Shown here piece by piece: positions 14,454 to 29,720 of a DNA stretch of 64,000 nt. Source of the stretch: a virus. Made by a program: the position numbers and the translations under genes. The number at the start of each line of letters is the position of its first letter. Within the stretch, counting starts at the first letter, position 1. The DNA lies in IMG/VR virus record IMGVR_UViG_3300025073_000027, positions 73,723 through 137,722 of that record; one strand, written 5' to 3'. A model generated the notes under the pieces. It was not told the DNA's origin, ran no database searches, and saw only the letters and a list, made by a program, of their open reading frames with translations.

Positions 14454-14546
14454 TAATATAAAATAAAAACACTCAATCTGTTCACTCGATTGTTTTCCCC
14501 CATATTAACCGGGTGAAGCACCGTTGAGTATTTTTATTTTGTATTA
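14454..14546. other. Long imperfect inverted repeat in the guaC-like leader, upstream of the serine recombinase
   Basis: TAATATAAAATAAAAACACTCAA...TTGAGTATTTTTATTTTGTATTA outer arms plus inner TTCACTCGATT/AACCGGGTGAA pairing. Confidence 0.6.
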
Positions 14547-14615
14547 AAATAATTGTTTGTTTTTATTTTTATTTATTATTATTATCTTTTATTAAATATT
14601 GAAATTATAGAATAT

Positions 14616-14644
14616 ATTTTACCACAAAATGTAAATTTTGTCAA
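14616..14644 (-). promoter_or_regulatory. sigma70/sigmaA-type promoter with extended -10
   Basis: TTGACA-17bp-TAAAAT (TTGACAAAATTTACATTTTGTGGTAAAAT). Confidence 0.75.
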
Positions 14645-14775
14645 GCAAATTTATTACCCTTATTTTTATAGTAATATTGTTCTTGCATTGATTTTGATTT
14701 TATATTATACTTCTGTATGTAACATTTATGTTGGATTGTTTCATAAACATTGTGTTAAATATTTGAGGTTAAATT

Positions 14776-16629
14776 ATGAATCAATATGCAGAAAAAGAAT
14801 TATCTGGTTTAGTCTTTCAAACATTTGAACAACTGGCAATAAATGGTTATATTGGTGATCCCTCTGGTGAAGACGCTTATGGATATTTGAGAGTATCTAC
14901 AGATCAGCAAGCAGATGAAAATCGTGCTGGATTACCTAGACAAATTGAACGAATTCATGAAATATCAAAAGAAAAAAGAAAACGAATTAGTTGGGATAGA
15001 ATAGTAGCAGATGATTTTTCTGGTTTTGATTTTGAGCATAGACCTCAATTACAAAAGTTATTAAAAGAAACCATAAATCCTAATACTCGTAGAGCAAATG
15101 TAATTGTAATGGAACAATTAGATAGATTAAGTCGTCAAGCTGATTGGCATCAAGGTTATTTGCTTGAAAAATTTATTAAAGATCGTGGGATGGAAGTTAT
15201 TTTTTGGAAATCCTTTGGCAGTCGAATTGAAAGAGTAGTAATGGGGGCTATTTCTCAAGATGGCATGGAAGATGCTCAAGGAAGAATGAAAGATGGTAAA
15301 AAACGTAAAGCAAAAAATAAAAAAGTTACCGCTTCTGTTCGTGCCTATGGATATGAGCGAGTAGATCCAGATGGTAAATTTTCAGAAAGAACACAAAGAG
15401 AAACGCATTATAAAATAAAAGACGATGAATCTATTTGGATTATTTTTATTTTTAATGAAATTGCTATTAAAGGTACATCTGCTAGGCAAGTGGCTAAAAT
15501 GTTAAATGAAAAGAGTGTACTTTGTAGAAATTCTAAAGCGTGGGAAGCAAGTGATATTACTCGTATTATACATAATCCACTATATAAAGGTATGTTCACA
15601 GCAAATCGATATCGTGAATATAAAATGGAAGTGGTGGAGAACGGTGTTAGTCGATTAATTAATAAAACTGAAATGCGACCAGAATCAGAATGGATTTATG
15701 TTCCTGTACCCCCCACAGTTAGTGAAGAAATGTGGGAATTAGCAAATAATATGCTTTCTAAAAATAAGCAAATGTCTCCTCGAAATCAAAAAAAATATAT
15801 TTATATTTTATCTGGATTAATTAAATGTGCTACTTGTGGATATACACTTGTTGGAGATGTTAAAACTGTTAAAGCTGGTACTAATCGAATGAAAGAAACT
15901 AAAACCTATCGTTATTATCGTTGTACTTCTACTACTGCTTGGCGTAAAAAAAACTATAAAATGGAATGTAATCAAAAATCTATCTCAGTTGAAAAATTAG
16001 AGGAAACCGTTTGGTCAGTCATTAGGAAAGTAATATATGAACCAGAAATATTATTGCAAGCAATGGATGCTGAATATAATAGTATAAGCAATCAACAAAT
16101 TATTGATACAATTAAACACTTAGAAAATGAAATAAATAAATTAGAAAAACATTTGGCTAAAGACTATGAATTATATAGAAATGATTATCTTACTGCACAA
16201 GAATTTGGAGAAAAGAAGCGTTTATATGAATTAGATATTAATAATAAATCAAGAGAAATAGAACAACGCAATAATCAAATTATTACTCAGGATAAATTAG
16301 AACAACGCAAAGAATTTATATTGGGATTATCTGAAAGGGCAAAGCAATATGATTATGGTAAAAACGCCCCTACTAACATAAAACAAACATTGATTAAGTC
16401 TATAGTTGAAACAATATATGTTAATTCTAATGAAGGTTGGGTGACAATAACTGGTCAAATTAAGGGAACATGGTCATTGATTGATAATAATGCTTTACAT
16501 ATTGTGAAACAATCATTGGAACGAATGTTATACAATAGGGAAACATTGCGTTTCAAAATACATTATTGGATAAAAGATGGCATTACATCTTCTATAACAT
16601 TGCTCTCTAGTGATCCAAATCTAGATTGA
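14776..16629 (+). CDS. Large serine recombinase (probable integrase)
   Basis: 'YLRVSTDQQ' catalytic Ser, 'DRLSR', 'AYGY', 'NPLYKG', 'LSGLIKCATCG...YYRC...C' zinc ribbon, coiled coil. Confidence 0.92.
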   Translation: MNQYAEKELSGLVFQTFEQLAINGYIGDPSGEDAYGYLRVSTDQQADENRAGLPRQIERIHEISKEKRKRISWDRIVADDFSGFDFEHRPQLQKLLKETINPNTRRANVIVMEQLDRLSRQADWHQGYLLEKFIKDRGMEVIFWKSFGSRIERVVMGAISQDGMEDAQGRMKDGKKRKAKNKKVTASVRAYGYERVDPDGKFSERTQRETHYKIKDDESIWIIFIFNEIAIKGTSARQVAKMLNEKSVLCRNSKAWEASDITRIIHNPLYKGMFTANRYREYKMEVVENGVSRLINKTEMRPESEWIYVPVPPTVSEEMWELANNMLSKNKQMSPRNQKKYIYILSGLIKCATCGYTLVGDVKTVKAGTNRMKETKTYRYYRCTSTTAWRKKNYKMECNQKSISVEKLEETVWSVIRKVIYEPEILLQAMDAEYNSISNQQIIDTIKHLENEINKLEKHLAKDYELYRNDYLTAQEFGEKKRLYELDINNKSREIEQRNNQIITQDKLEQRKEFILGLSERAKQYDYGKNAPTNIKQTLIKSIVETIYVNSNEGWVTITGQIKGTWSLIDNNALHIVKQSLERMLYNRETLRFKIHYWIKDGITSSITLLSSDPNLD

Positions 16630-16751
16630 TCTTCTTGAATTAGATATTCAAGCCAAAGAGATAAAGAGTTTTGAAAACTCAGCATTTGGAGATTGCTTAT
16701 TTCTGATAAATTTAATGTTACTTCGTTTAATACATTATTATCATTATTCAT
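16563..16751 (-). CDS. Small hypothetical protein, convergently overlapping the recombinase 3' end
   Basis: ORF track; AGGA upstream; last gene of the minus-strand run. Confidence 0.4.
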   Translation of the reverse strand: MNNDNNVLNEVTLNLSEISNLQMLSFQNSLSLWLEYLIQEDQSRFGSLESNVIEDVMPSFIQ

Positions 16752-16771
16752 TATGAGTTCCTATTATTATT

Positions 16772-17032
16772 TTATTTATTATAATGTGAAAGATCTAAAA
16801 GATCTAAAGGATTGTTTCTTTCTAATCTTAGAACAGTTTCAATTAAACCATCTTCGCTATCTAATTCAAAACCTAAAACTTCACATTTATAGCGTCCATT
16901 ATATCTTTGCTGATTTTCCTCAGTAAGTCCTATTTCAATTGCTTTTTTTGTACTGGTGTAAACACCCACAATATAGGAGTGAGCATGGCGATCACCATAT
17001 TTATACATTATTACTGTATAGATTTTATTCAT
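16772..17032 (-). CDS. Hypothetical phage protein
   Basis: AAGGA RBS; 'YG....HSY.VGVY....KA' pattern seen in small phage proteins. Confidence 0.6.
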   Translation of the reverse strand: MNKIYTVIMYKYGDRHAHSYIVGVYTSTKKAIEIGLTEENQQRYNGRYKCEVLGFELDSEDGLIETVLRLERNNPLDLLDLSHYNK

Positions 17033-17088
17033 TGTTATTTATCCTTATATAAAAGCTAAATTTCGTTATATATTATTTGAATATTTTA

Positions 17089-18306
17089 TTAGATTATATT
17101 AACTCTAATTGGGTACAACGATATACCCTTTATCCTGTCATCATATATAAATTCAGGATTACATTTTCTTAAAATATTAAAACTTCCATTTACATCAGCA
17201 TTAATCAAAGTGCCATTTTTGGATTGATATAAACCTCTTTTAATTCTTTTTCCACTAAATTTATATTTACCAAATTTATCAGGTATAACATCATTATCAA
17301 TAAAACTGGATTTACTCGTATATTGTTCAGTCATTATTTGAACTTTAATTCCATTTTCCTCTGCTTTATAAATAATCTTATTTATCAAAGATTCAAAAGG
17401 AATTTGAACAAATTTTTGATTATTCTTTTTTCCAATATTGCTTTTTCTTTGCCAATCTTTATTTCTACCAATCACTATGTTGTCTATATTATTTTCAATA
17501 CAATAGTTTATAATCCAGCGACTTACTTTATGTATATGATCTTCTGTAATATTATTTTTTTTAGTTGATATTTTTTTAATTCTATTGGATGTACCCTTTC
17601 CTATATAACCTTCAGCTTTAGCGAACAATTTATTGTAATAATTATTTATTGATTTTATTATTTTGCCATTTATAACAATGGGCTGTAATCCTATGTTATT
17701 AGTTAATGTAGCAAAATTATTTATTCCTAAATCAATTGCTAGATGGTTATTATTATAATTTGTTTTTTCTTCAGCTTCTTTCTCATAAACTATTTCTATT
17801 TTATAGCAAGATCCATATGGTACTATTCTGATTTGTTTTAATTCATTTTTGACTATATTGGTTTCTATAAATTTATTTCTTTTCAAAGAACCCTTTTCTT
17901 GAAAATAACATTTATTATCTATTATTTTTAATTGTTGTTTATCAAAAAATGTAACAAATCTTCCATTTTTATTTTTATATTTGGGCAATTTTGGCATACC
18001 GCAATATTTCGATTTATTTTTACTCCAATCTTTTATCGCTCTAAAATATGATTTCCAATCTGATCCTAATCGCATAATGGTCATTTGAGAAGTTTTAGAT
18101 GGCAAGGCTTTAAATAATTCATGATGTTTATATTGTTTATTTAAATCAAAAGCAAATAACAATTTTTTATTATTTATAAATTCCTGTCGCATTATATAGT
18201 TGATAAAATTATATAAATTCTTTGATTTATAACATAAATCATCACAATATTTAAATAATCTGTGATTTCGATCAATGATATGAATTTGAGTTCTTAATAA
18301 TTTCAT
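17089..18306 (-). mobile_element. tnpB: Solo TnpB (IS200/IS605-superfamily RNA-guided nuclease), no TnpA adjacent
   Basis: 'SKNLYN..NY..RQ', 'P.LPKYK', RuvC-I 'AIDLGINN', 'EQYTSK', RuvC-III 'NADVNGSFNI'. Confidence 0.88.
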
Positions 18307-18314
18307 TTTTTTTA

Positions 18315-18899
18315 TTATATATTATATTTTTTATCGGCAATATCTATTTCTACAAATTCTAATTGTTGAGGCAGATTAAAATATCGAGTTAACCAAAAAC
18401 TATGATAATAAGAAGAATGACCTGTAGCACCCGATTTTCCACTTGGGGTTATGTAATCTATTCTTCTCGTTGGAACTAATCCTTGACAATCATATTCTGA
18501 AAATAATTTTGCCATCTTTTGACACATATCAAACGGTATAAGAAAGGCAAATGGTATATCGTGTTTAATTGCTTTATCTATGAATCTGTATTTTAAAGAA
18601 AAAGGCGGGTTTGTAATAATTGCTGTCGGTTCATTAAACATTAATGTGTCTTCTAATAGAAAATTAATTGGTTGATTGCCATTTACTATTCTAATATCGG
18701 ATGCAAATATATAATATCCATATTTTTGAAGTCTATTAATAATTTTTCCTTCGCCAGCAGAACATTCCCAAATTTTGTGAATATTTTTTGGAATAAATGA
18801 TACTAATAAATCAACAGCATAATTAGGAGTTTGAAATAGATCTCTACCCTGCACTTCATTTATTATTTCCGGTTGATTTGTTTTAGGTTTATTACTCAT
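18315..18899 (-). CDS. Small DNA N6-adenine methyltransferase
   Basis: 'D.FQTP', 'IWECSAGEG' SAM motif, 'ITNPPFS'. Confidence 0.8.
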   Translation of the reverse strand: MSNKPKTNQPEIINEVQGRDLFQTPNYAVDLLVSFIPKNIHKIWECSAGEGKIINRLQKYGYYIFASDIRIVNGNQPINFLLEDTLMFNEPTAIITNPPFSLKYRFIDKAIKHDIPFAFLIPFDMCQKMAKLFSEYDCQGLVPTRRIDYITPSGKSGATGHSSYYHSFWLTRYFNLPQQLEFVEIDIADKKYNI

Positions 18900-18917
18900 A
18901 TTATTTATTATCCTTTA

Positions 18918-19184
18918 TTAATTAGGTGGTGTTACTTTCACATTATATTTAAAACTATCTATAAAATCTTTTAAACAATCTTCACAAATATCAAACTGCC
19001 ATATTTCCATGTCATATTCACTACCATATTGATATTCAATTGCGAAAGATTGAATAACATCCATCCAAAAGAAATCTTGTTTATTTTTAGGCTTGAAACT
19101 TTTTCCACATTTATTGCATATGATTTCAGTAATTTCTAATTCTTTAATTATTTTTTTTATTTCTCTTGTTTTTTGTACCACCAA
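18918..19184 (-). CDS. Small zinc-finger phage protein
   Basis: CNKC...YGSEYD...DICEDC. Confidence 0.65.
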   Translation of the reverse strand: MVVQKTREIKKIIKELEITEIICNKCGKSFKPKNKQDFFWMDVIQSFAIEYQYGSEYDMEIWQFDICEDCLKDFIDSFKYNVKVTPPN

Positions 19185-19217
19185 TTATCTCCTTATAAAA
19201 TAAACTTTTTATTGGTA

Positions 19218-19475
19218 TTACATCGAACTGCCCCACATATCTACTACTTCTCCAAATTCTATCCACATTCGTTTTACATATGAACCACAATTTTCACGTT
19301 TACCATTATCGTTTCCCCAAATAGCATAACTACAAGCTATCATACCTTCTACTTCTTCAGTAATCCATCTTTCTCCGCTATCTTGATCAAATATTAACCG
19401 ATGAATTTTTACCTTTGGACCAAGGAAATTATTTTCTGTTTCTCGCTTATTAACATTAATATCTACATCACCCAT
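19218..19475 (-). CDS. Hypothetical protein (between two boundary sites)
   Basis: ORF track; sites at 19195 and 19474. Confidence 0.6.
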   Translation of the reverse strand: MGDVDINVNKRETENNFLGPKVKIHRLIFDQDSGERWITEEVEGMIACSYAIWGNDNGKRENCGSYVKRMWIEFGEVVDMWGSSM

Positions 19476-19497
19476 AAAATTATCCTTTTATTATTTA

Positions 19498-19710
19498 TTA
19501 CATATTTTGTAAGTATCGTATTATTTTCATTATGAAATCATCTGCTTTATTTCCTAAAGATGCAAGTAATAGCAAAAAATAAAATATAGAAAATAAACCC
19601 CAAAAATAAATTGCTTTGTTTATTGCATGAAGTTTTCGTAATTCTTCTATTATTACTTCTGGAAATATTGAGAAAATAAAAGCAAGCAACATTAAGCCTG
19701 TTTGTTTCAT
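19498..19710 (-). CDS. Small membrane protein
   Basis: Two hydrophobic stretches. Confidence 0.5.
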   Translation of the reverse strand: MKQTGLMLLAFIFSIFPEVIIEELRKLHAINKAIYFWGLFSIFYFLLLLASLGNKADDFIMKIIRYLQNM

Positions 19711-19814
19711 TGATAAGAATTTTTACAAGTTTTACAATACCAACTCAATCCCCATTGATAAAATTCTCGATATTTTTTACAATGAGGACACCAGAGAATT
19801 TTTAAATTCCTCAC
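19707..19814 (-). CDS. 35-aa zinc-ribbon peptide (not in ORF track)
   Basis: Manual translation MRNLKILWCPHCKKYREFYQWGLSWYCKTCKNSYQ; GTGA/ATGA overlaps with both neighbours. Confidence 0.55.
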   Translation of the reverse strand: MRNLKILWCPHCKKYREFYQWGLSWYCKTCKNSYQ

Positions 19815-20011
19815 CAAGGACAACCTCCTTCTGTATATAACCAAGATCGACAAAAATATATTTTTAAATGTTTATCATAAAACATTCTATCTCCACAATG
19901 AGAACAAATACGAGTGTTAGACCAAGCTACATGTCTTTCTCGTTCTAAACCGTCATTTAATTCCCATTGGGGTAGATTTCTTTCACTTACTTTAGGTTTT
20001 TTATATTTCAT
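19811..20011 (-). CDS. Small zinc-binding hypothetical protein
   Basis: Probable start MKYKK after AGGAG; CSHC...C...C. Confidence 0.55.
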   Translation of the reverse strand: MKYKKPKVSERNLPQWELNDGLERERHVAWSNTRICSHCGDRMFYDKHLKIYFCRSWLYTEGGCPW

Positions 20012-20248
20012 TATTTTTATTCTCCTAGTAAAATTCACGTTTCATATCCAACTAGCTTCTAAATAAGTTGTTTTATTGGATTGTTTTTTATTGCATAGAT
20101 GATCTTCATCTAACCAATAAAATTCACCACAAATATCACAGATATCACAATCGGGAGTTTCTAAATGTGGATATGATATTTGAATTGATATTCCGTATGC
20201 CCATTCTGGAAATGTATTCATGTATTTATTCCTTATAAAATCCTTGTT

Positions 20249-20575
20249 TTATTTGATTGCAGGAAACTTTTTATTTTTCTTTCTAGCACCCTTTACTATT
20301 TCATCCCATTCATTCTCTAATTCTGTACGTTTTTGTACATGTTGTTGACACAAACTCCATAATTCATCTGAGTATGGATAGCAACGGCGAAAAGGATAAA
20401 AACCGTATCTGCCATTATTTAATTCTTCTAAGTCTTTATTACCTCTAAGTTCAATACATTTACCTTCACTCGTTGTATAAGCATCAGTATAAATAATAAT
20501 TGGAAATCCTTTAATTGTTCCTGCTTCTAAGCCGGTGGGAATAAATATGTATTTGTTATTTATTATTTTATCCAT
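20249..20575 (-). CDS. Hypothetical protein (between boundary sites)
   Basis: Stop codon lies inside the site at 20235. Confidence 0.6.
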   Translation of the reverse strand: MDKIINNKYIFIPTGLEAGTIKGFPIIIYTDAYTTSEGKCIELRGNKDLEELNNGRYGFYPFRRCYPYSDELWSLCQQHVQKRTELENEWDEIVKGARKKNKKFPAIK

Positions 20576-20637
20576 TTGTTATTTTATTCTAATAAAAATA
20601 TAGTTTTATCTGGTTTTCTTATAATAAAAACGTTATT

Positions 20638-20853
20638 TTATTGGTTCAGAGCAGGTATATTCCAGAAAGCAGGATATTCCCTTCTCATATGTCTTGTCGC
20701 TAATATTCTTTGCAAGATATGAATACTGTTTTTAAAATCATTAACATCATCGGCATTTAAATCCTCTAGCCTAATAAAAGTATTCCACGCCTGAACAATG
20801 TGATGTATAACACAATATTCCTCATAAGTTAAACCAGTTTCTTCGTGTTCCAT
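20638..20853 (-). CDS. Hypothetical phage protein (between boundary sites)
   Basis: Sites at 20624 and 20865; AAGGA RBS. Confidence 0.65.
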   Translation of the reverse strand: MEHEETGLTYEEYCVIHHIVQAWNTFIRLEDLNADDVNDFKNSIHILQRILATRHMRREYPAFWNIPALNQ

Positions 20854-20878
20854 TTTTATTCCTTATAAAAGCATTATT

Positions 20879-21037
20879 TTATTGTTTATAAAATGGTAAT
20901 CGTGAATCCGCTCCACGTTTTACTTTATCCTTAGAAAGTCCTAAAGATTTTGCTACTTTTTCTATATTTTGAAGATGACTACATATACGATAATTTTTAT
21001 CTTCTATTGTAATTGTATAAAAGTATATATTGTTCAT
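20879..21037 (-). CDS. 52-aa hypothetical protein (not in ORF track)
   Basis: Manual translation MNNIYFYTITIEDKNYRICSHLQNIEKVAKSLGLSKDKVKRGADSRLPFYKQ; stop inside the site at 20865. Confidence 0.5.
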   Translation of the reverse strand: MNNIYFYTITIEDKNYRICSHLQNIEKVAKSLGLSKDKVKRGADSRLPFYKQ

Positions 21038-21086
21038 TTTGTTTTTTTATAACCAAAACTTATTTATTTTTTTATATTTATAATAT

Positions 21087-21344
21087 TTACATTTTTTTTA
21101 CTGGCTTATCGGGTATAAAATTAATCTTATGTGAAAGCCATTGTTTTAAACTATATTCAATATCGAGGTAATAAAATATTTCATTCATATATTCTTTTAT
21201 CCAACTATAGATTTCTCGTAAACCAAAATTTAATAAGCTGAATTTTCTCGCTTTACAAATATACCAATCCCAATATGATATATGTTCACAATGAAGGCAT
21301 AGGTGATTTTTGTATATTTCTTGCATTTGTTTATTTTTATCCAT
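21087..21344 (-). CDS. Hypothetical protein
   Basis: ORF track; CxxC...C. Confidence 0.5.
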   Translation of the reverse strand: MDKNKQMQEIYKNHLCLHCEHISYWDWYICKARKFSLLNFGLREIYSWIKEYMNEIFYYLDIEYSLKQWLSHKINFIPDKPVKKM

Positions 21345-21376
21345 TATCCATTTGTTTTCCTTATAAAATATCGGTT

Positions 21377-21544
21377 TTATTGTTTATTATTTTCTACCCA
21401 ATATAAAAATTGATCCAATTCGGATTTAGCATATCCATGCCTTGATTGTATATCTTGATAATCATCATATTTATCTAAGGTTTCAAGATATTCTGTTACC
21501 CATTCATTATATAATTCTAAAAATATTCTTGTTTCAATATTCAT
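21377..21544 (-). CDS. 55-aa hypothetical protein (not in ORF track)
   Basis: Manual translation MNIETRIFLELYNEWVTEYLETLDKY...WVENNKQ; fills the interval between sites 21363 and 21559. Confidence 0.55.
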   Translation of the reverse strand: MNIETRIFLELYNEWVTEYLETLDKYDDYQDIQSRHGYAKSELDQFLYWVENNKQ

Positions 21545-21572
21545 TTACTTATTTCCTTATAAAATTGTGGTT

Positions 21573-21776
21573 TTATTCTGAAATATATTTATTTGTATCC
21601 ATAAATTTAATATCAATAGCACTCGATAAAATATTTATAAGTTTTCCTGTTTTAACATCTTCTAAACAATAGCAATGATAATTATCAATCATATATGAAT
21701 ACCAAAATAATCCCATCTTCCATTCAATACCTATTTGATATTTACATAATCTATATTGAGGTTCTAATTTAATCAT
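21573..21776 (-). CDS. Hypothetical protein (between boundary sites)
   Basis: Sites at 21559 and 21789. Confidence 0.6.
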   Translation of the reverse strand: MIKLEPQYRLCKYQIGIEWKMGLFWYSYMIDNYHCYCLEDVKTGKLINILSSAIDIKFMDTNKYISE

Positions 21777-21808
21777 TTGTTTTTCCTAATAAAATCTAAT
21801 TTTTATCA

Positions 21809-22042
21809 TTATAAATTTTTAAGTTCCCATTCTAAATCTTCTATTTTATTTTTTAATTCTTCTATGTCATCATCATATCTTTTTTCAAGAACATCCAATT
21901 CATCTGCATATTCATAACATAAATTTCTTAATCGATCATTGACTTTTCTAATTACTTTCAGTTCCTTTTCAATTTCATCAATGCTAGGGCAAGAGTGTTC
22001 AATGTTATCAATTTTTCTAGTTCGTTCACTATAAATAGTCAT
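21809..22042 (-). CDS. Coiled-coil hypothetical protein
   Basis: 'CP.ID...L..IR..N..LR' pattern. Confidence 0.6.
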   Translation of the reverse strand: MTIYSERTRKIDNIEHSCPSIDEIEKELKVIRKVNDRLRNLCYEYADELDVLEKRYDDDIEELKNKIEDLEWELKNL

Positions 22043-22046
22043 AATA

Positions 22047-22592
22047 TTAATTATTATTGTCCTTTTTTTCTGTCATTATCATTCTTATTTCTTCTAAACT
22101 AACTGGATAATAATTATTATTATCTATTCCAACATCATATGCTAAAGATCCATTTGGGTAAATATAATTACCGTGAGAGTGAGCATGTAAATGCCATGAC
22201 CCATAATGTTTTCTATCCCATTCCGCAAGAGGATAATGACATAAAACAATTGGTACTTCAAATTCTTCTAATACAATCATTGGTGGCAATAATTTAACGG
22301 GATGATTTTTAGAATAATATTCTTCTTTATAAGATAGCCAGCGCTTATCGTGATGCCAAGGATTAGATAAAACAGAAATTATTCCATTTAATTGTATAAA
22401 ATATTTTTTGGCAAGAGCAACATTCCCTAAAGTAAAATCACTCAAATGATAAACTATGTCATTTTTAGAAACCTTTTCATTCCATTTATTTATTAATTCT
22501 TGATCCATTTCTTCTACGGATTGAAAAGGTCTTTTTGTATATTTGATTACATTAGTATGGCCGAAATGTTGATCTGAAGTAAAAAATATCAT
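22047..22592 (-). CDS. Calcineurin-like metallophosphoesterase
   Basis: 'TSDQHFGH', 'YHLSDF', 'HD', 'CHYP', 'HLHAHSH', 'DVG.D'. Confidence 0.85.
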   Translation of the reverse strand: MIFFTSDQHFGHTNVIKYTKRPFQSVEEMDQELINKWNEKVSKNDIVYHLSDFTLGNVALAKKYFIQLNGIISVLSNPWHHDKRWLSYKEEYYSKNHPVKLLPPMIVLEEFEVPIVLCHYPLAEWDRKHYGSWHLHAHSHGNYIYPNGSLAYDVGIDNNNYYPVSLEEIRMIMTEKKDNNN

Positions 22593-22596
22593 AAAA

Positions 22597-22803
22597 CTAT
22601 CCTCTTATTTGGTTTTCATTATATTTAACAACTGCTTGACTATAAATAATCATATCGTTTATACCAGGAGAAAAAAGAAATGCATATGATGGGCCATATA
22701 ATTTCCATTTCTTTTTTAAATAACTATTTACATTATTATTAAACGTAGATAAATCACAAGATTCAATCATACAATATTCTTCAATATTTTCTATATTATA
22801 CAT
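22597..22803 (-). CDS. DUF1737-like small protein
   Basis: 'VN.YL...W.LYG......Y.QAVVK'. Confidence 0.55.
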   Translation of the reverse strand: MYNIENIEEYCMIESCDLSTFNNNVNSYLKKKWKLYGPSYAFLFSPGINDMIIYSQAVVKYNENQIRG

Positions 22804-22824
22804 ATTATTATACCCTTATTTTGT

Positions 22825-22878
22825 TTTCATTATATTTATGGGTTTCATCGTTTGTTGAAACTCATAGATATAATGAAA
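22825..22878. other. 23-bp-stem inverted repeat
   Basis: TTTCATTATATTTATGGGTTTCA-8nt-TGAAACTCATAGATATAATGAAA, two mismatches. Confidence 0.8.
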
Positions 22879-22888
22879 TTATTTGTTT

Positions 22889-23083
22889 TTATGGCAACAT
22901 TGCTCGAACAAAACAATCCTTTGCCTCAAGTAACTTCCTCATTCCTGCTGATTTTTCTGGTCCATCAGGAAGGATGTTTTCCATATAAAATGCTAATTCG
23001 GCTACTTTTTTAGATACATCACGTAATTCACCAGAAAGATGTTCATATATAAAATATTTAATTGTTGTACTTGGCATTTTCAT
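22889..23083 (-). CDS. Small helical-hairpin protein, possibly Acb2/Tad1-like
   Basis: 'F.YEHL...L..VS.....LA......LP.GPE.SAG.RKLLEAKD.FVRA'. Confidence 0.5.
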   Translation of the reverse strand: MKMPSTTIKYFIYEHLSGELRDVSKKVAELAFYMENILPDGPEKSAGMRKLLEAKDCFVRAMLP

Positions 23084-23089
23084 TCTCCT

Positions 23090-23380
23090 TTATTCTTCTA
23101 TAAAAAATTGCATAGATTCTAGTTCTTCTAACCATTTATCCATACAATTCAAGCAAGAATAAGTGCTACCCCATTCTCCTTCAACAATTGCATGTTCTCT
23201 CATTGCCAATTCACCAGTAAGTATTTCATGATATGAATTTTCACCAACCAGTTCTGCTAAACAGCAATTATGAGGTTTTCTGGTTTTTACTATTTTCCAA
23301 GTATATACCTTTATATTTGTATCTCTATCTGTACCTAAAAACGGATTCCAATTTTGATATGTTTCTTTTTTGTATTTCAT
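23090..23380 (-). CDS. Zinc-binding hypothetical phage protein
   Basis: 'KTRKPH.C...GE...C..C'. Confidence 0.6.
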   Translation of the reverse strand: MKYKKETYQNWNPFLGTDRDTNIKVYTWKIVKTRKPHNCCLAELVGENSYHEILTGELAMREHAIVEGEWGSTYSCLNCMDKWLEELESMQFFIEE

Positions 23381-23432
23381 TATTAATCTTTTTTCCTTTT
23401 TTGATATTTTTTTTATTAATCCTATTCCTTAT

Positions 23433-23705
23433 TCATTCTACACTTGATTTATTAAATATGTGCTCACCGCCCCTAGTAGAACTATACCAATATAAAATCC
23501 ATAAAAGACAATTATCTTTTATAGCGGCTATAATTTCTTCGTTGCCAGACCATCCACCTGTAATTAAGTGCCAATCTTTTCCGATCTTTGATATATATTC
23601 GGGCCAATGCCATAGATTAGATACATAGTTCATCAGTCCATCAAAGTCATCAGCGTCCCACTCTCGTATCTTTTGCAATTCGTTATCTTCTGGATAGTCA
23701 CTCAT
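23433..23705 (-). CDS. Hypothetical phage protein
   Basis: 'YP...L..I..W', 'TGGWSGNEEII', 'RGG.H.F'. Confidence 0.7.
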   Translation of the reverse strand: MSDYPEDNELQKIREWDADDFDGLMNYVSNLWHWPEYISKIGKDWHLITGGWSGNEEIIAAIKDNCLLWILYWYSSTRGGEHIFNKSSVE

Positions 23706-23735
23706 GTTATATTTTTTCCTATGAAATTTACTTTT

Positions 23736-24086
23736 TTATTGTAAAATTTTATTCATAATATATTTATATGTTTCAATGGCCTTATCTGATCCTCTAAATT
23801 CAAATGAATATTTTCCAGCTGAAGTCATAATAACAATTGTACTTGTTTTTATAAATGTTCCGGAATCTAATGCGGATACGGCAACGATTTTAGAATATGG
23901 TACAGATGCCATATTTTTGTTTTTTACCCATCCAGTCATTTCTTGATCATAAAATATAAGTCTTTTATTTGTTATACCAACAAATCCAGTTCCGACACCT
24001 TTACAATCATATACCGATATTAATTCTTCTCCGCTAAGAATATATGGTGCTATTTTTTCATATTGTTCTTTTTTATCGTAATACAT
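23736..24086 (-). CDS. Bacterial PH-domain protein
   Basis: 'L..GE.......GITNKRLIF.D......S.PYSKI..V' bPH pattern. Confidence 0.7.
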   Translation of the reverse strand: MYYDKKEQYEKIAPYILSGEELISVYDCKGVGTGFVGITNKRLIFYDQEMTGWVKNKNMASVPYSKIVAVSALDSGTFIKTSTIVIMTSAGKYSFEFRGSDKAIETYKYIMNKILQ

Positions 24087-24119
24087 TTTAAATATCTTTC
24101 TCCTAATAAAACTTAATTT

Positions 24120-24305
24120 TTATTCTAAATATTCCCAATACTCTTTACCTAGTGATATTTCACTATCCGATAATTCTGGTAATCCCAATGTCTTTCTAAT
24201 CCTATTAATTATTAAATAGCCATCATAAACATAACACCAAGCATGATCAAACCCTTCCATAACAAACTCTTTAATATCATTAATTGTCTCTCGATTAATA
24301 TCCAT
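24120..24305 (-). CDS. Hypothetical protein (between boundary sites)
   Basis: Sites at 24106 and 24315; AGGAG RBS. Confidence 0.6.
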   Translation of the reverse strand: MDINRETINDIKEFVMEGFDHAWCYVYDGYLIINRIRKTLGLPELSDSEISLGKEYWEYLE

Positions 24306-24328
24306 ATTTCTCCTATAAAATTGAAGTT

Positions 24329-24541
24329 TTATTGTTCTTCATCATCTTTATAAAATTCTTCAACATCGTGATAACCTGAATATGGGTTAAGCACATAACC
24401 AAGAGCATTTACCTTGTCTTTATGAACAGGTGCATCGTAACCACAAAAGTAAAAATTGTTGTCTATATAACGTGCTATTTCTATATCATCATCTGCATAT
24501 CTTACCCAATAATACATTCCGTCATATAAGTTTATGTCCAT
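24329..24541 (-). CDS. Hypothetical protein
   Basis: 'G.YYWV' pattern; stop inside the site at 24315. Confidence 0.6.
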   Translation of the reverse strand: MDINLYDGMYYWVRYADDDIEIARYIDNNFYFCGYDAPVHKDKVNALGYVLNPYSGYHDVEEFYKDDEEQ

Positions 24542-24751
24542 TTATATCTCATCTTTCTTTCGCAATCTTTCAACTGAAAAATAACTTGGATAATCTAACG
24601 TAAATAAAATTTTATAAATATCTGGAAAATTATCAAATACTTTAATTGCGTGTTGAATTAAAGCATCATTTACAGTTTCGTTATCTTTTATATATGTTTC
24701 TTCTTTACCTGTAAATGGATCGTCATAAATGCATTTGTATTTATATTCCAT
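24542..24751 (-). CDS. Hypothetical protein
   Basis: AAGGAG RBS directly after the site at 24764. Confidence 0.6.
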   Translation of the reverse strand: MEYKYKCIYDDPFTGKEETYIKDNETVNDALIQHAIKVFDNFPDIYKILFTLDYPSYFSVERLRKKDEI

Positions 24752-24777
24752 ATTTTTCTCCTTATAAAAGAATTATT

Positions 24778-27021
24778 TTATAATAATTTAAGCCACGTAT
24801 TTCTACTTGTATTTTTATCAGTTTCAATTGCTTTATTGAAGGCCCAAGGTTCAGCAAGAATAAGACATCGCTTTATTGCTCTGGTAACAGTTGTGTAAAG
24901 ATAACATCGATCTAAAAGCATAAAATGTGTATTATCAATTAAAGATATTATTGTATGACACTGGCTTCCTTGGAATTTGTGTGTTGTTAAAGCATAAGCT
25001 AAATCTATATCTTTTAATTCTGTTTTAGTGTATTGAATATATTGATCATCGTATTTCACCACTAAAACCTTTTCTCCATCTGGATTTATACCTAAACTAT
25101 CTACATATCCTAAAGTTCCATTCATTACACCTTTTTCGTAATCGTTTCTAATATGTATTACCTTAGAACCAATTTTATATTTTATTTCACCATATTCCAT
25201 ATAAGGAACATCATCTGATAATAATATATCTTGTATTTGTCTATTTATTTTTTTAGTGCTATTAATACAATCCTTTTTTCTAGGTGTAAGAATAATTACT
25301 TCATCTAAACTTAGACTTTCCTCAGTAATTGAACGTAAAAATGTTTTTACCGCTATTTCATTCAAAGCATCGCGTGAATCTCTAAACATATAATAAAGAT
25401 CTTCTAATTCGCCATGAACAATTTTAAAACTCTTTTGTGGAACAGGATTTTTACCAACTCTTATTTTGTTAGCATCTGAAATAATTCCTGATTTTTCAGC
25501 TTGCCGATGTATCTTAGTTAATTTATTTAATTGTAATCCTTCTTTATCCAATAAATCAGAAAAAATATTGGCATAGCCGATAGGAGGTAATTGGAAGTTA
25601 TCGCCTACTAAAATAACTTTTGTTCCAGTTTGAATTGCCTTGAATAAATTAAGAAATAAATAACCATTTAACATTGAACATTCATCAATTAAAATAACAT
25701 CATAAGGCAATTTTAAATATTCATCAAATTTAAAGTTATTTAATCCATCTGCCCCCAAGAGTCTATGCAGCGTTGAACTAGGATATCCGGTAACTTCTTC
25801 TAATCTTTTAGAAGCTTTAGCGGCAAGTGTAGCGCAAGCAATAGGGTGATTACTATAAATATTTAGGATACCTCGTGATATAGACGATTTGCCAGTACCG
25901 GCAGGACCACAAAGAAGATTGAAATTGTTTTTAGTGATATTTATTAATGCTTCCCTTTGTTCTTCAGAGAAAATAAATCCCTGATCTTCTTCAGCTTTCT
26001 TTATACCTTCATTAATTTCTTCTTGTGTAATTTCAAGAAGCTCACTTTCACTAAATTCTTTAACGTATCTCCATATTTCTCGTTCAACCCAATAATAATA
26101 GTCTAATCCTACTTTCCAATTATCATCTTCATCTTTTTCAAAATGTAAAAAAGTGGTAAACCCTTTTTCTTTTTCAATTACGGATTGATAAATTTCTTCA
26201 CACTCAATTAGGTTTTCTTTTACAGCAATTGTAAGATCATCTAAATACAGCCAAGTATGTCCAGAACCATCACCTAATTCTCGTAGATAATTTTTTATAA
26301 ATGAAATGACTCTTTTATCAGAATGTTTCATTTCTGGATTAAGTTTTATTGCTATATTATCTGCTTGTTTGAAACTTATTCCAGGTATATCTATAATAAT
26401 ATATGGATCATTTAATAACTTTTGTTTCAATAATTCGGCATTAGGTTCAAAATTTAAAAGTTTGTGTATTTTTGAAAACGAAATCCCAAGGGGAGATAGT
26501 AATGTAAGAACATCAGCAATAGCATAATTACTAATAATCTTTTCCCTAATCAACTTCCAAGTATGATCTTTAATGCCCTTAGTATTATTTAAATCAATAT
26601 CACCTTCGTTACCACTAATAACTTTCTCAATAATGTCTGGATATGCTTCTAATAGAACTTGTGCCTGATTAGGAGTAACAATACTTTCTAAAAACTTTTG
26701 TTGTTGATCTACAGTCTTAGGAAGTTCTTGACTACTCTTAAGAATCTCGTAACCCCAACCATACTTTGAGTGATTTGTTAGTTTAGCTTTGAAACGATAA
26801 GGCATACCGATTGTAAGTTGTTGAGTTTTACCGGATAAATTAATTTGATAATAAGAATCAATTTTATCGGTTATAAAATCAGTATTGAAAATTTGTTTCG
26901 CCTGAGGAATTTCTTTATCAAGAGAAACCAAATAAGAACCCCAACTGGAATCGGGACTATAGAATTTCTCAAATGTGGGTGTTCCATCAAATTCAACAAT
27001 TTGACCTTCGGAAAAATCCAT
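24778..27021 (-). CDS. recD2: RecD2-like SF1B helicase
   Basis: N-terminal OB/HhH region, 'GPAGTGKS', 'IDECSM', 'GD.FQLPP', 'HRQA', 'YALT.HK.QGS', 'YT.VTRA'. Confidence 0.9.
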   Translation of the reverse strand: MDFSEGQIVEFDGTPTFEKFYSPDSSWGSYLVSLDKEIPQAKQIFNTDFITDKIDSYYQINLSGKTQQLTIGMPYRFKAKLTNHSKYGWGYEILKSSQELPKTVDQQQKFLESIVTPNQAQVLLEAYPDIIEKVISGNEGDIDLNNTKGIKDHTWKLIREKIISNYAIADVLTLLSPLGISFSKIHKLLNFEPNAELLKQKLLNDPYIIIDIPGISFKQADNIAIKLNPEMKHSDKRVISFIKNYLRELGDGSGHTWLYLDDLTIAVKENLIECEEIYQSVIEKEKGFTTFLHFEKDEDDNWKVGLDYYYWVEREIWRYVKEFSESELLEITQEEINEGIKKAEEDQGFIFSEEQREALINITKNNFNLLCGPAGTGKSSISRGILNIYSNHPIACATLAAKASKRLEEVTGYPSSTLHRLLGADGLNNFKFDEYLKLPYDVILIDECSMLNGYLFLNLFKAIQTGTKVILVGDNFQLPPIGYANIFSDLLDKEGLQLNKLTKIHRQAEKSGIISDANKIRVGKNPVPQKSFKIVHGELEDLYYMFRDSRDALNEIAVKTFLRSITEESLSLDEVIILTPRKKDCINSTKKINRQIQDILLSDDVPYMEYGEIKYKIGSKVIHIRNDYEKGVMNGTLGYVDSLGINPDGEKVLVVKYDDQYIQYTKTELKDIDLAYALTTHKFQGSQCHTIISLIDNTHFMLLDRCYLYTTVTRAIKRCLILAEPWAFNKAIETDKNTSRNTWLKLL

Positions 27022-27075
27022 TTATTATTTATTATCCTTGTTATTATTTTATAATTTATTATTTATAGATGTTAT

Positions 27076-27104
27076 ATATTATCACAGAATTACAAATTTG
27101 TCAA
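27076..27104 (-). promoter_or_regulatory. sigma70/sigmaA-type promoter with extended -10
   Basis: TTGACAAATTTGTAATTCTGTGATAATAT. Confidence 0.75.
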
Positions 27105-29710
27105 GACTTGGATAAAAATTCATGTTCCTTTTCTGTAATAAAATAAGTTTCCATCCACCAATCTATCTTATCAGGAACTTGTTCCCACTCACCATTCTCA
27201 TTCTTACGCATAGAATTTTTCTTTTTGAATGATTTACAGAGAAGAATATCACCTTCAGTAAAAGGATGAGAATCAAATATTTTTTTAGATACTTTTACAA
27301 CTTGGCAAGTGCCAGTCGATAAAGGATATAATTCTATTTTAGGAGTATATTTAGTATCAATTTTCTTTACAACAGCATATCTTTTATCTACATCAAACTT
27401 AGTTCGAATATTGCCAGCAACTTCTATCTCGTTATTTATTTGCTCAAAAATAGTAAAACTTTTTTCATCCTGAAAATCATACGATAAACGTAATTCTTCT
27501 AATCGTTTTACTTTAGATTTATCGGTTAATGTTTTCTTGTATCTATTCTTCCCATTAGTAAATTCTTCAAAAAACCAAAGTTGTTTTTTATTGCTACCAA
27601 ATTTATCAAAATAATTTATTTTTATCAAGTCTTTAAATTTACTAGAAATCAGAGAATTTTCTTCACAATATACAAGCAAGTCTAAGAAATCATTTCCAGT
27701 AAAATTTTTATTTATGTATGCTAAATTATCAATTAATTTACTAGGTATACTTTTAATACCTTTTAGAATAGAAACAACACCTTCAATTTCTGTTTCTCGT
27801 AACGCTTCTGGATCTACATAATCTTCTGGCTCATCTTCAAAACTAAATGGTTCAATATCTTGATTATTTTCAATGTCTGTAATGTATTTTTGGGCTTCTT
27901 CTTCATAAAAGGCATAATCAATATTATATTTTTCTATAGGTATGGAAGCATCATAATCATTTAATATTGTAGTTAGTTTGCCAACATATAAACCAATTTC
28001 TGTTCCATTAGACATTCTGCGTTTGATTAGTTTACCACCGTTGTTTGACACGAAAAATCTATTGTTTTTTTGAAGTTGAATAATATTATCATCTTTATGA
28101 AACTCTAAAATAAAATCTCCACCTGTCTTTTGAGATATACAGAAATCCAAAATATTGTCAGATTTCTTCAAAGTGTCAATAACGGAAATCTTATTTACAA
28201 AATAATCATACAACGCTTTAGGAACAATGGGATGACGAAATGCCCGTTTTAATTCAACAGTTTTTAAGTAACGTCCTTTTTCCTTAGTTTTACCATCTGG
28301 TTTAACCGTTATGTAGTTATTAACATCGCTTCTATAATATGCCAGATATTCAGTATCTTCAAGAACAAAACCTGTTTTCTTTTGCCACCATTCAGAAATT
28401 TCTTGACATTTATTTTCTAATTCTACTGGCAAATGTAATACTATACCGTCTGTATTTGTAGAAATAACTTCAATTCCTTCTACTACCAAGGCTTCTATTA
28501 ACATTAATAAATATAACTGTCCACTTACCGTTACAGATAATAATTGTTTTGGATCATAAAGCCAAAAAACATCACTGCCCAATTTTCCAAAAATGCTATT
28601 AATTGTGATCTTAAGACTATCGGCTTTAATTTTATCTCCGCTTTTCTTGGCTTTCAATCGTTCTTTAGTAATACGCTTAAGAATATTAACAAATTTAGGA
28701 TCGAGATGTTCAGAATAAAGATTATTGTTGATCATAATAGATGGGTAGTATGACGCTACATCTTTATCCATTATTTTTATCTTATCCGTAGATATAAAAT
28801 ATCCTGGTTTATCAACACTATGCAAACCACCTACTCCTAATTCATAAGTAACATTTGCAAACTTTACTGTCTTACTATATTTAAAATTATCTTCTTTGTG
28901 AACAACCTTTTCTTCAATTTCTCTTTTTATTCGTTTTAGACGATTAGTTTTAAATTCAATGTTCTTACCTAAACAATCACCAACACGAATACTATCTCTT
29001 TCTGTTCGCAAGTTACGCAATTCTTTAGAAGTTATTCCTGTTGCTTTGCAGTATATATGCTCTAAAATAACATCTGCCATCTTGGAATCACTTGCACTCA
29101 TTAAATCAACTTCATATTCTTCACTTAGTTTTTCACGTAATTCAAGTTGAGAAGATAAGGATTGAAGTAATTTTTGAGTAATAAGAACATCGTTCAAGTT
29201 ATAACTTAAAACCTTTTCGTATTCTTCTAGTTGAACATGGTGATCATAAGGTAAAGGTAAATCTTGTACTTTGTGCCAGAGAAGATTGATACTAATTTGT
29301 TTGAGGGACACGCCTAACTTATCAAAGGCCATGAGTTTCATCAAGTCAATTTGTTTGTACTTTACATTATTCGGTCTTTGATGATTACGTGTTTTTGTAT
29401 CAAATGCCATACGATTAGAATTAATAAGAGAGTTGGAAAAATTATATATTTCAGGATTTATTTCTTTTGGTTTTACATTTATATTTTGTTGATAATATTC
29501 AGTAATAAAATGTAAAATAGCACCATCAAAGAGAATGTTGTTAAAACCAATAAGTATCATTTCATGGTCTAAGAAATGATAGAGAGATTTAATATCGTTT
29601 CGCCCTGGCGCTATTACAAATACGTGTTGCTCTGATTCATTATCAGAATTTAAAAATGTACTTGAAAAAAAATTGGGAAATATTTCTACATCGTATGTAT
29701 ATCTGACCAT
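27101..29710 (-). CDS. DNA polymerase: family-B core with a DnaE-like C-terminal extension
   Basis: Exo I 'YDVE', Exo II 'GFN...FD', Exo III 'YNLNDV'; PolB motifs 'DVASYYPS', 'KITINSIFG', 'NTDG'; extra ~230-aa C-terminus. Confidence 0.85.
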   Translation of the reverse strand: MVRYTYDVEIFPNFFSSTFLNSDNESEQHVFVIAPGRNDIKSLYHFLDHEMILIGFNNILFDGAILHFITEYYQQNINVKPKEINPEIYNFSNSLINSNRMAFDTKTRNHQRPNNVKYKQIDLMKLMAFDKLGVSLKQISINLLWHKVQDLPLPYDHHVQLEEYEKVLSYNLNDVLITQKLLQSLSSQLELREKLSEEYEVDLMSASDSKMADVILEHIYCKATGITSKELRNLRTERDSIRVGDCLGKNIEFKTNRLKRIKREIEEKVVHKEDNFKYSKTVKFANVTYELGVGGLHSVDKPGYFISTDKIKIMDKDVASYYPSIMINNNLYSEHLDPKFVNILKRITKERLKAKKSGDKIKADSLKITINSIFGKLGSDVFWLYDPKQLLSVTVSGQLYLLMLIEALVVEGIEVISTNTDGIVLHLPVELENKCQEISEWWQKKTGFVLEDTEYLAYYRSDVNNYITVKPDGKTKEKGRYLKTVELKRAFRHPIVPKALYDYFVNKISVIDTLKKSDNILDFCISQKTGGDFILEFHKDDNIIQLQKNNRFFVSNNGGKLIKRRMSNGTEIGLYVGKLTTILNDYDASIPIEKYNIDYAFYEEEAQKYITDIENNQDIEPFSFEDEPEDYVDPEALRETEIEGVVSILKGIKSIPSKLIDNLAYINKNFTGNDFLDLLVYCEENSLISSKFKDLIKINYFDKFGSNKKQLWFFEEFTNGKNRYKKTLTDKSKVKRLEELRLSYDFQDEKSFTIFEQINNEIEVAGNIRTKFDVDKRYAVVKKIDTKYTPKIELYPLSTGTCQVVKVSKKIFDSHPFTEGDILLCKSFKKKNSMRKNENGEWEQVPDKIDWWMETYFITEKEHEFLSKS

Positions 29711-29720
29711 TATTATCCTT

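Follow-up and report, generated by a model that had tools for sequence, protein, structure and literature searches.

In the virus record IMGVR_UViG_3300025073_000027 (IMG/VR, 137,722 bp), the stop codon of the helicase gene recD2 leads into an array of small co-oriented genes whose junctions are marked by an 18-bp palindrome, ATAAAA-N6-TTTTAT. We analysed a window of 64,000 nucleotides (bases 73,723 to 137,722 of the record); coordinates are those of the window unless prefixed G000:C1, which denotes the whole record. The array represents an ordinary region of accessory early genes in an SPbeta-like phage and is not an integron, as the defining features tested failed. The palindrome is a genome-wide element and not a property of this array. 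It is shared across the phage family and, as far as the literature searched shows, undescribed. From sequence comparisons, we assign a probability of roughly 0.55 to the reading that the array is an accessory early-gene segment punctuated by a palindrome that serves as a double-stranded DNA docking site for a phage-encoded factor.

A junction palindrome in the array, the genome and the phage family

We identified 12 perfect copies of the palindrome between positions 19195 and 24781 (Table 1). They fill 11 of the 25 array junctions; a gap of 18 nt or more is present at 16 junctions, which include all 11. The TAA stop codon of the upstream gene lies within 8 of the 12 copies. Looser forms were seen by eye: a variant with a 7-nt spacer near 23721 and a one-mismatch match at 22591 that overlaps a ribosome-binding site (RBS) and start codon. 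A first-pass annotation of this DNA had described about 16 sites, a count reached by adding two copies with two mismatches (20028 and 17049) and these two looser ones to the perfect set. It had also placed the recD2 stop codon (24778-24780) inside a site, which proves to be the perfect copy at 24764-24781, and had picked out units holding a single open reading frame (ORF) at 20638-20853, 21377-21544, 21573-21776 and 24120-24305, each of which is indeed flanked by perfect sites.

Across the whole window the perfect copies number 25, where shuffles that preserve dinucleotides lead one to expect 0.37 (none of 100 shuffles reaches 25). We identified 53 perfect copies in the 137.7-kb genome, nearly all of them intergenic, and 37 one-mismatch matches (15 expected), 26 of which are intergenic. 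Sites occur throughout both gene blocks of the minus strand. Copies also separate core replication genes (for example at 33287 and 40072), and a smaller number is found in the structural block. An alignment of the 53 sites, each read in the direction of its genes, shows no variation in the arms and no consensus in the spacer. Outside the arms, two positions on either side show weak conservation, and neither a -35 nor a -10 element is conserved nearby. By rough gene calls, at least 25 of the 53 sites start either at the stop codon of the preceding gene or 2 nt after it, and the end mostly falls 9-22 nt ahead of the next start.

The same element is present in SPbeta (NC_001884), where 13 copies are perfect (0.3 expected) and 34 match the relaxed form TAAAA-N6-TTTTA (2.4 expected). 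ATAAAA-N6-TTTTAT is the commonest palindrome of the 6-N-6 type in that genome. SPbeta copies mostly stand directly 3' of early-gene stop codons, 10-25 nt before the next GGAGG, and this placement is unchanged even where the stop codon falls outside the palindrome. Among 18 related IMG/VR records, five contain the perfect form 32, 32, 22, 12 and 11 times and the rest 0-4 times; the counts of 32, 32, 22 and 12 belong to the four closest relatives. Some more distant relatives (L077, L081 and L094, also L076 and L111) instead have ATGAAA-N6-TTTCAT, at 2-4 copies per 22 kb, a form that differs from ATAAAA-N6-TTTTAT by a symmetric change in both arms.

A literature search found no description of the palindrome, the matches listed being concerned with the repressor box (SPBRE/SroF), CRISPR or promoters. 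The passages of an SPbeta review that deal with palindromes, intergenic elements or repeated elements mention no such element.

Several familiar identities were considered and rejected for the site. An intrinsic terminator would need more than a weak AU stem that lacks a G+C-rich stem and a separate U tract; classical terminator-like hairpins exist elsewhere in the sequence. A sigma-70 promoter is contradicted by the missing -35 and by abutment to the RBS, which leaves no room for a leader. The published box of the master repressor differs from the palindrome. Mobile repeat copies were also dismissed, as the spacer differs in every copy.

DNA recognition, RNA structure and recombination

Several observations favor recognition of the palindrome on double-stranded DNA by a two-fold-symmetric protein. 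First, the site folds poorly as RNA: hairpins predicted for all 12 sites folded have energies of -0.3 to -4 kcal/mol and z scores near 0, no better than shuffles. Second, the arm sequences are invariant and show no compensatory change. Third, one-mismatch variants from six genomes are not biased towards G-U wobble pairs over A-C mismatches (sense A>G 16, T>C 13, p 0.71), and a hand count in this genome alone gave 10 wobble-compatible variants and 16 that are not. Finally, the spacers, which would form the loops, have no excess complementarity to their flanks, whether counted as 5-mers (upstream 29 vs 26.3 ± 3.2, downstream 21 vs 25.1 ± 2.8) or as 6-mers (13 vs 9.8 and 12 vs 8.5).

These same observations (marginal hairpins, no wobble preference, no loop-flank pairing and arms that are invariant rather than covarying) count against an RNA-level intercistronic element, in which an AU hairpin and a phage or host RNA-binding protein would control translation of the next gene, or the hairpin would mark a point of processing or stability. 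The placement of the sites is what such an element would lead one to expect, since they lie between co-directional genes, start at the stop codon and end shortly before the next start, in SPbeta as well as here. Conservation of the spacers could likewise reflect recognition of a loop. On balance we regard an RNA-level role as rather unlikely.

The docking-site reading can be put as follows. The array is the segment of small accessory genes in the early, replication-side block of this SPbeta-like phage, whose genome is 138 kb long. Transcription most likely enters from upstream and reads through the array, and the hairpin at 22824-22878 may form a single internal boundary. The array genes are separated by the family-wide junction element, which starts at or a few bases from the upstream stop codon and mostly ends just before the next RBS. 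A phage-encoded protein with two-fold symmetry would dock on this element in double-stranded DNA and would probably set the expression strength of each downstream gene. Gene swapping at junctions would then follow incidentally, because no other non-coding DNA is available for it.

The spacers are a separate matter. At nine pairs of orthologous sites in the relatives G018 and G002, the arms agree at 108 of 108 positions and the spacers at 52 of 54, against 148 of 180 and 141 of 180 in the two flanks. Five Bacillus phages (SPbeta, SPR, Goe11, Goe12 and phi3T) give the same picture over 45 non-independent pairs (arms 450/450, spacers 264/270, flanks 837/900 and 836/900), all six spacer differences being one substitution at one site. 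Spacers are thus about three times less diverged than flanks between orthologous sites, and with wider margins conservation falls sharply beyond the 16 bp. Within genomes, identical spacer pairs number 0 in each of five genome sets; 0.6-1.7 are expected in each, and the result is within chance. Near-identical pairs also seem too few, but not once the null preserves composition (z -0.2 to -1.7, and +0.3 in one genome). No model tested accounts for spacers that differ from site to site within a genome and yet are kept between orthologues of a site. The affinity of the phage 434 operator is tuned by central bases that the protein does not contact, and this precedent is the only appeal that the docking-site reading can make for spacer conservation.

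Spacers of this kind would suit dedicated recombination joints. The site has the geometry of Xer-type sites, with two inverted arms and a 6-bp centre, and the palindromes could be core sites for a phage tyrosine recombinase, the centre being the crossover region. Unique spacers would stop deletions within a genome and permit in-register exchange between co-infecting relatives, in a phage analogue of integron and pdif systems. Their distinctness within genomes, however, is no greater than chance under the composition-preserving null, and only 6 (to 8) bp per arm are conserved here, against 11 bp in dif.

The genome encodes two tyrosine recombinases, neither of them adjacent to the array: an Xer-like protein of 299 aa and a YomM-like protein in the structural block (Table 1). 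R, K, HxxR, H/W and Y motifs, which we take to be the catalytic set of tyrosine recombinases, can be read in the Xer-like protein in alignment to XerC-like/XerA structures and in the YomM-like protein from its own sequence. The Xer-like protein falls below all NCBIfam cut-offs, and no dif-like site was seen by eye beside its gene. Among the 18 related records, its clear orthologues (39-41% identity, E <1e-60) occur only in the four site-rich relatives; these are also the closest kin, so the pattern is confounded by kinship. SPbeta has the sites and lacks an orthologue, its best matches being YopP (E 0.003, N-terminal only) and YopR (E 0.71). Genes with a tyrosine-recombinase fold are present in 17 of the 18 records regardless of site count.

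Gene turnover at the sites is visible in individual loci. At a position where the related locus L010 has a single gene, L014 has three, and beyond them the two loci become homologous again precisely at a site whose spacer is the same in both. One site of L014 recurs in L012 with its spacer unaltered, and the genes that follow it differ between the two. Enrichment of such breakpoints at sites is weak. In G018 vs G002, breakpoints fall at 8 of 18 site junctions and 21 of 79 others (odds ratio 2.2, p 0.16), and when junctions are limited to gaps of at least 15 nt the figures are 8 of 18 and 13 of 35 (odds ratio 1.35, p 0.77). Among the five Bacillus phages, 18 of 20 ordered comparisons give an odds ratio above 1; p falls below 0.05 in one of the 20, and in none with the gap control.

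The laboratory hybrids Hyb1 and Hyb2 were compared with their parents beyond the initial 50 kb. The Hyb2 crossovers lie between 104630 and 106035 and between 114170 and 119066, stretches of 1.4 kb and 4.9 kb in which the parents are identical, as expected of ordinary homologous recombination. The left-hand stretch, within which the crossover cannot be placed more finely, reaches about 20 nt beyond a junction site. Hyb1 has no parental switch in 50-131 kb. Gene exchange at the sites is possible on these comparisons, and sites dedicated to recombination are in our estimate distinctly unlikely. Less probable again is a full gene-junction exchange system of SPbeta-like phages, in which sites of 16-18 bp with common arms would each carry their own conserved 6-bp 'address' and a tyrosine recombinase would cross only sites of the same address, so that co-infecting relatives would swap whole genes in register without deleting their own.

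A number of these points weigh against the docking-site reading itself. Abutment to stop codons and ribosome-binding sites suits an RNA-level role equally well, and a simple operator model does not predict individually conserved spacers. Site junctions coincide with mosaic breakpoints somewhat more often than other junctions do (in 18 of the 20 Bacillus comparisons and in G018 vs G002), a weak and non-significant trend that leans towards a recombination role. The restriction of Xer-like orthologues to the four site-rich relatives points the same way, subject to their kinship. No binding protein for the site was identified among the candidates.

Conservation of the palindrome reaches from a phage of groundwater to SPbeta, the laboratory model, and its unique yet conserved spacers are explained by no simple model. 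Because SPbeta is genetically tractable, the function of the palindrome (expression control, RNA handling or gene exchange) is directly testable; the answer would be relevant to how large phages arrange and replace their numerous small accessory genes.

The array, its cargo and its phage

The record is complete according to CheckV and has a G+C content of 29%. A YonO-type single-chain RNA polymerase of 926 aa (G000:C1:32450-35230; L170:12450-15230), encoded outside the window, heads the structural gene block. It matches PF05183 (RdRP, 4e-24), presumably the family of SPbeta YonO, and is 26% identical to YonO over 512 aa. In the parts of the source consulted, YonO is described as SPbeta's own late-gene RNA polymerase (PMC5467207). 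Searches with tblastn against SPbeta gave matches to YonO, YonG, the terminase YonF (36%), YomM, the RecJ protein YorK (37%), YorJ and YorI, at identities of 26-37%. The gene order (Sak4, DnaB, primase, RecJ, polymerase, small ORFs, methyltransferase (MTase), nucleotidase, dNMP kinase, ribonucleotide reductase (RNR)) agrees with yorG-nrdEF of the SPbeta annotation, except that the MTase stands differently with respect to the kinase and nucleotidase. The gene for a large serine recombinase (14776-16629) corresponds to yokA, the annotated SPbeta integrase. With both a YonO-type polymerase and the SPbeta-type order of replication genes, this is by its gene content a large SPbeta-like phage. Given the shared gene order, the array is the positional counterpart of the small-unknown-gene clusters yorM-yorQ and yorV-yosL of SPbeta.

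The array consists of 24 co-oriented minus-strand ORFs between the recD2 stop codon and the end of the TnpB gene (24751 down to 17089). The more than 20 tiny co-oriented ORFs of the first-pass annotation are borne out: 21 of the 24 are shorter than 120 aa, the exceptions being the phosphoesterase (181 aa), the MTase (194 aa) and TnpB (405 aa). Most have an AAGGA(G)-type RBS or a coupled start. PHROG matches among the 22 small ORFs were obtained for 23736-24086, 23090-23380, 22889-23083, 22047-22592, 20638-20853 and 18918-19184, together with weak ones. Three proteins named from the letters alone keep their names, as the phosphoesterase matches phrog_547, the PH-domain protein bPH_1/GRAM and the MTase phrog_799; the MTase (18315-18899) has no Pfam, NCBIfam or PDB match. 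Four array ORFs fall in PHROGs of unknown function, and a 90-aa ORF belongs to large unnamed phage protein clusters. A protein-cluster look-up for a 108-aa ORF gave nothing usable. The remaining ORFs matched no PHROGs or Pfam family, with NCBIfam run on some of them only. The suggestion that this cargo is anti-defence found no backing, since no named anti-defence family was matched in PHROGs, in Pfam or, for the ORFs searched there, in NCBIfam. The TnpB gene that closes the array has no TnpA nearby, and TnpB genes of about 40% identity lie 3' of recD2 in the related loci L015, L042 and L059.

Gene content varies between relatives. Identical gene order across relatives was not seen: a tblastn search of 80 related recD2 loci gave nothing for 17 of the 24 array ORFs, and matches to the others are few and sit at other positions. 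These loci share just 28-56% RecD2 identity, so non-conserved content could stem from divergence alone. Some RecD2 homologues span 3.1-3.2 kb rather than 2.2 kb (L013, L065-L067 and L160-L162; proteins P0033, P0037 and P0038). Of these, P0033 is probably intein-bearing because it contains intein and LAGLIDADG Pfam domains. An identical RecD2 is carried by 11 contigs. A megablast of the array against phage sequences gave no match, a single-protein RecD2 scan of viral contigs found none, and a metagenome scan gave a best full-length RecD2 identity of 56% with nothing closer. Contigs from four DNA runs over 14500-29800 are identical to the window among the long pieces listed. No structural variants were established in these runs over that interval; the joint sides are 20-27 letters at 80% likeness, and joints of that kind often come from other organisms.

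A consensus scan gave 135 sigma-70-like matches, a number at chance level (143.2 ± 10.4 expected), and none of the best 60 of the 135 is a consensus TTGACA match inside the array, in agreement with the first reading. The upstream match that had been proposed, TTGACA-17-TAATAT with a TG at 27104-27076, is present. Independent promoters for most ORFs were not seen, and no credible internal one was found save possibly at the 85-nt gap 22804-22888. This gap contains a strong hairpin (22824-22878) that overlaps a TCAACA-18-TATAAT match and may split the array into two units. The hairpin had been called sponge-like: the structure is real (-20.5 kcal/mol, z -4), and the label finds no counterpart in Rfam, where no family matched and the matches obtained were sub-threshold and at chance level.

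The array had also been likened to an integron read from an upstream promoter. At least four single-ORF units between repeated sites, the common orientation and the lack of obvious internal promoters resemble such an array. A true integron would add an IntI integrase, attC sites and a Pc promoter. No integron integrase was found, and the Xer-like gene, 27 kb away, scores 94.3 bits against TIGR02249 (cut-off 265) and 58.9 bits against NF011946 (cut-off 435). Integron attC sites are long imperfect inverted repeats that fold as single strands. The sites here are neither attC-like nor terminators, because they are 18-bp perfect palindromes that fold no better than shuffles. Nor are they confined to the array: some separate core replication genes, and others occur in the structural block. 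Integron origin has in our view a negligible probability and the idea can be dropped, because arrays of this kind are usual beside the replication genes of large temperate phages.

Elsewhere in the window, two palindromes of the form CCCC(T)ATATAT(A)GGG(G) (32432-32476), about 30 bp from one another, lie upstream of an HNH endonuclease gene (31431-32378, phrog_374), and a similar motif occurs at G000:C1:69981.

Table 1. Positions of the junction palindromes, array genes and other features.
Feature	Position	Strand	Basis and remarks
Best sigma-70-like promoter match upstream of recD2, predicted	27076-27104	-	TTGACA-17-TAATAT, TG; consensus match only
recD2 helicase, 747 aa	24778-27021	-	Pfam AAA_30, HHH_RecD2, SH3_13, UvrD_C_2; matched in 80 of 80 related loci; TAA stop within first site
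22 small ORFs, 34-181 aa, mostly ORFans	18918-24751	-	ORF list, RBS, tblastn
Bacterial PH-domain protein, 116 aa	23736-24086	-	Pfam bPH_1 1.9e-9, GRAM 5.5e-9; phrog_7115
Strong 55-nt hairpin in the array's only long gap	22824-22878	.	-20.5 kcal/mol, z -4.0, 0 of 200 shuffles as good
Phosphoesterase, 181 aa	22047-22592	-	phrog_547 4e-41; homologues in 4 related loci
Small DNA methyltransferase, 194 aa	18315-18899	-	phrog_799 1.9e-27
TnpB (IS605 OrfB-type), 405 aa, mobile-element gene closing the array	17089-18306	-	Pfam OrfB_IS605, Cas12f1-like_TNB; NF040570 2e-51
Perfect palindrome, holds recD2 stop	24764-24781	.	Motif scan
Perfect palindrome	24315-24332	.	Motif scan
Perfect palindrome	24106-24123	.	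Motif scan
Perfect palindrome	21789-21806	.	Motif scan
Perfect palindrome	21559-21576	.	Motif scan
Perfect palindrome	21363-21380	.	Motif scan
Perfect palindrome	20865-20882	.	Motif scan
Tandem pair of perfect palindromes (20624-20641 and 20592-20609) in one 62-nt gap	20592-20641	.	Motif scan
Perfect palindrome	20235-20252	.	Motif scan
Perfect palindrome; spacer holds next gene's GGA, 3' arm runs into ATG	19474-19491	.	Motif scan
Perfect palindrome	19195-19212	.	Motif scan
Degenerate site, 2 mismatches, in junction	20028-20045	.	Motif scan
Degenerate site, 2 mismatches, after TnpB; lower boundary of the array in the first-pass annotation	17049-17066	.	Motif scan
Xer-like tyrosine recombinase, 299 aa, candidate site-binder only	51788-52687	-	PF00589 1.3e-37; XerC-like/XerA structures 4e-30
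YomM-like tyrosine recombinase, 349 aa, in structural block	G000:C1:68904-69953		Pfam, tblastn to YomM

Comparison with known systems

The PeSLs of the T4-type phages RB49 and phi1 combine a strong sigma-70 promoter with a terminator stem-loop, according to the portions of the report consulted (Arbiol et al., 2010, PMC2839356). As there described, PeSLs resemble the present element in being dozens of short repeated non-coding elements between small non-essential genes in the variable regions of large phages. Gene insertions, deletions and replacements between relatives occur at PeSLs, whereas recombination at the sites described here lacks statistical support. The palindrome is not a PeSL, as neither the promoter nor the terminator part is present: it has no conserved -35 or -10, its hairpin is too weak to terminate, and its spacer is unique to each copy.

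The repressor box of SPbeta and phi3T is a second repeated intergenic element of the same phage family. In the sections consulted, it is described as an asymmetric A-tract (a 26-bp box in phi3T, the 15-bp SPBRE) found at about 10 promoters and bound by monomeric MrpR (SroF), a protein with a tyrosine-recombinase fold, and ChAP-seq peaks are reported at SPBRE promoters only (PMC10516654; bioRxiv 10.1101/2025.11.27.690993). Compared with the SPBRE so described, the palindrome is symmetric, 3-5 times more frequent and located inside operons. By eye, SPBRE-type boxes in SPbeta stand beside some palindromes and not on them. At about 76171, 99498 and 129297 of NC_001884 (aimR, yorE and yosX, reported MrpR-bound promoters), the palindrome adjoins an A-rich ACAAA(A/T)ACAAAAAATAT that looks, by eye, like an SPBRE. 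The palindrome and the SPBRE-like run may work together at those three promoters.

Many copies of a short site in small intergenic spaces within temperate-phage operons are also known from the stoperators of mycobacteriophage L5 and the start-associated sequences of Cluster K phages. Those elements lack symmetry and depend on orientation, and stoperators are targets of the immunity repressor; the site here is palindromic and distinct from its family's published repressor box.

Integron and pdif systems share with the present sites a pattern in which single genes are bounded by repeated sites whose ends are conserved and whose centres vary, and Xer/dif sites share the layout of two arms around a 6-bp centre. 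Arms in dif are about 11 bp around a centre of 6-8 bp, whereas here 6 bp per arm are invariant and 2 more weakly conserved. This phage further differs in having no IntI, no attC-like folded single strand, and sites that also lie between core genes. The arms of difH and difSL end in GAAAA and begin with TTTTC, as given in the portion of an Xer review consulted (PMC5357621).

The closest counterparts are the yorM-yorQ and yorV-yosL clusters of SPbeta (NC_001884). The small ORFs have no detectable protein homology to the SPbeta small ORFs, and this phage has another polymerase type, an additional recD2 and a denser set of sites (12 in 5.6 kb). The clusters otherwise occupy the same position after RecJ and the polymerase, have the same neighbours (kinase, nucleotidase, MTase and RNR) and carry the same stop-abutting palindrome.

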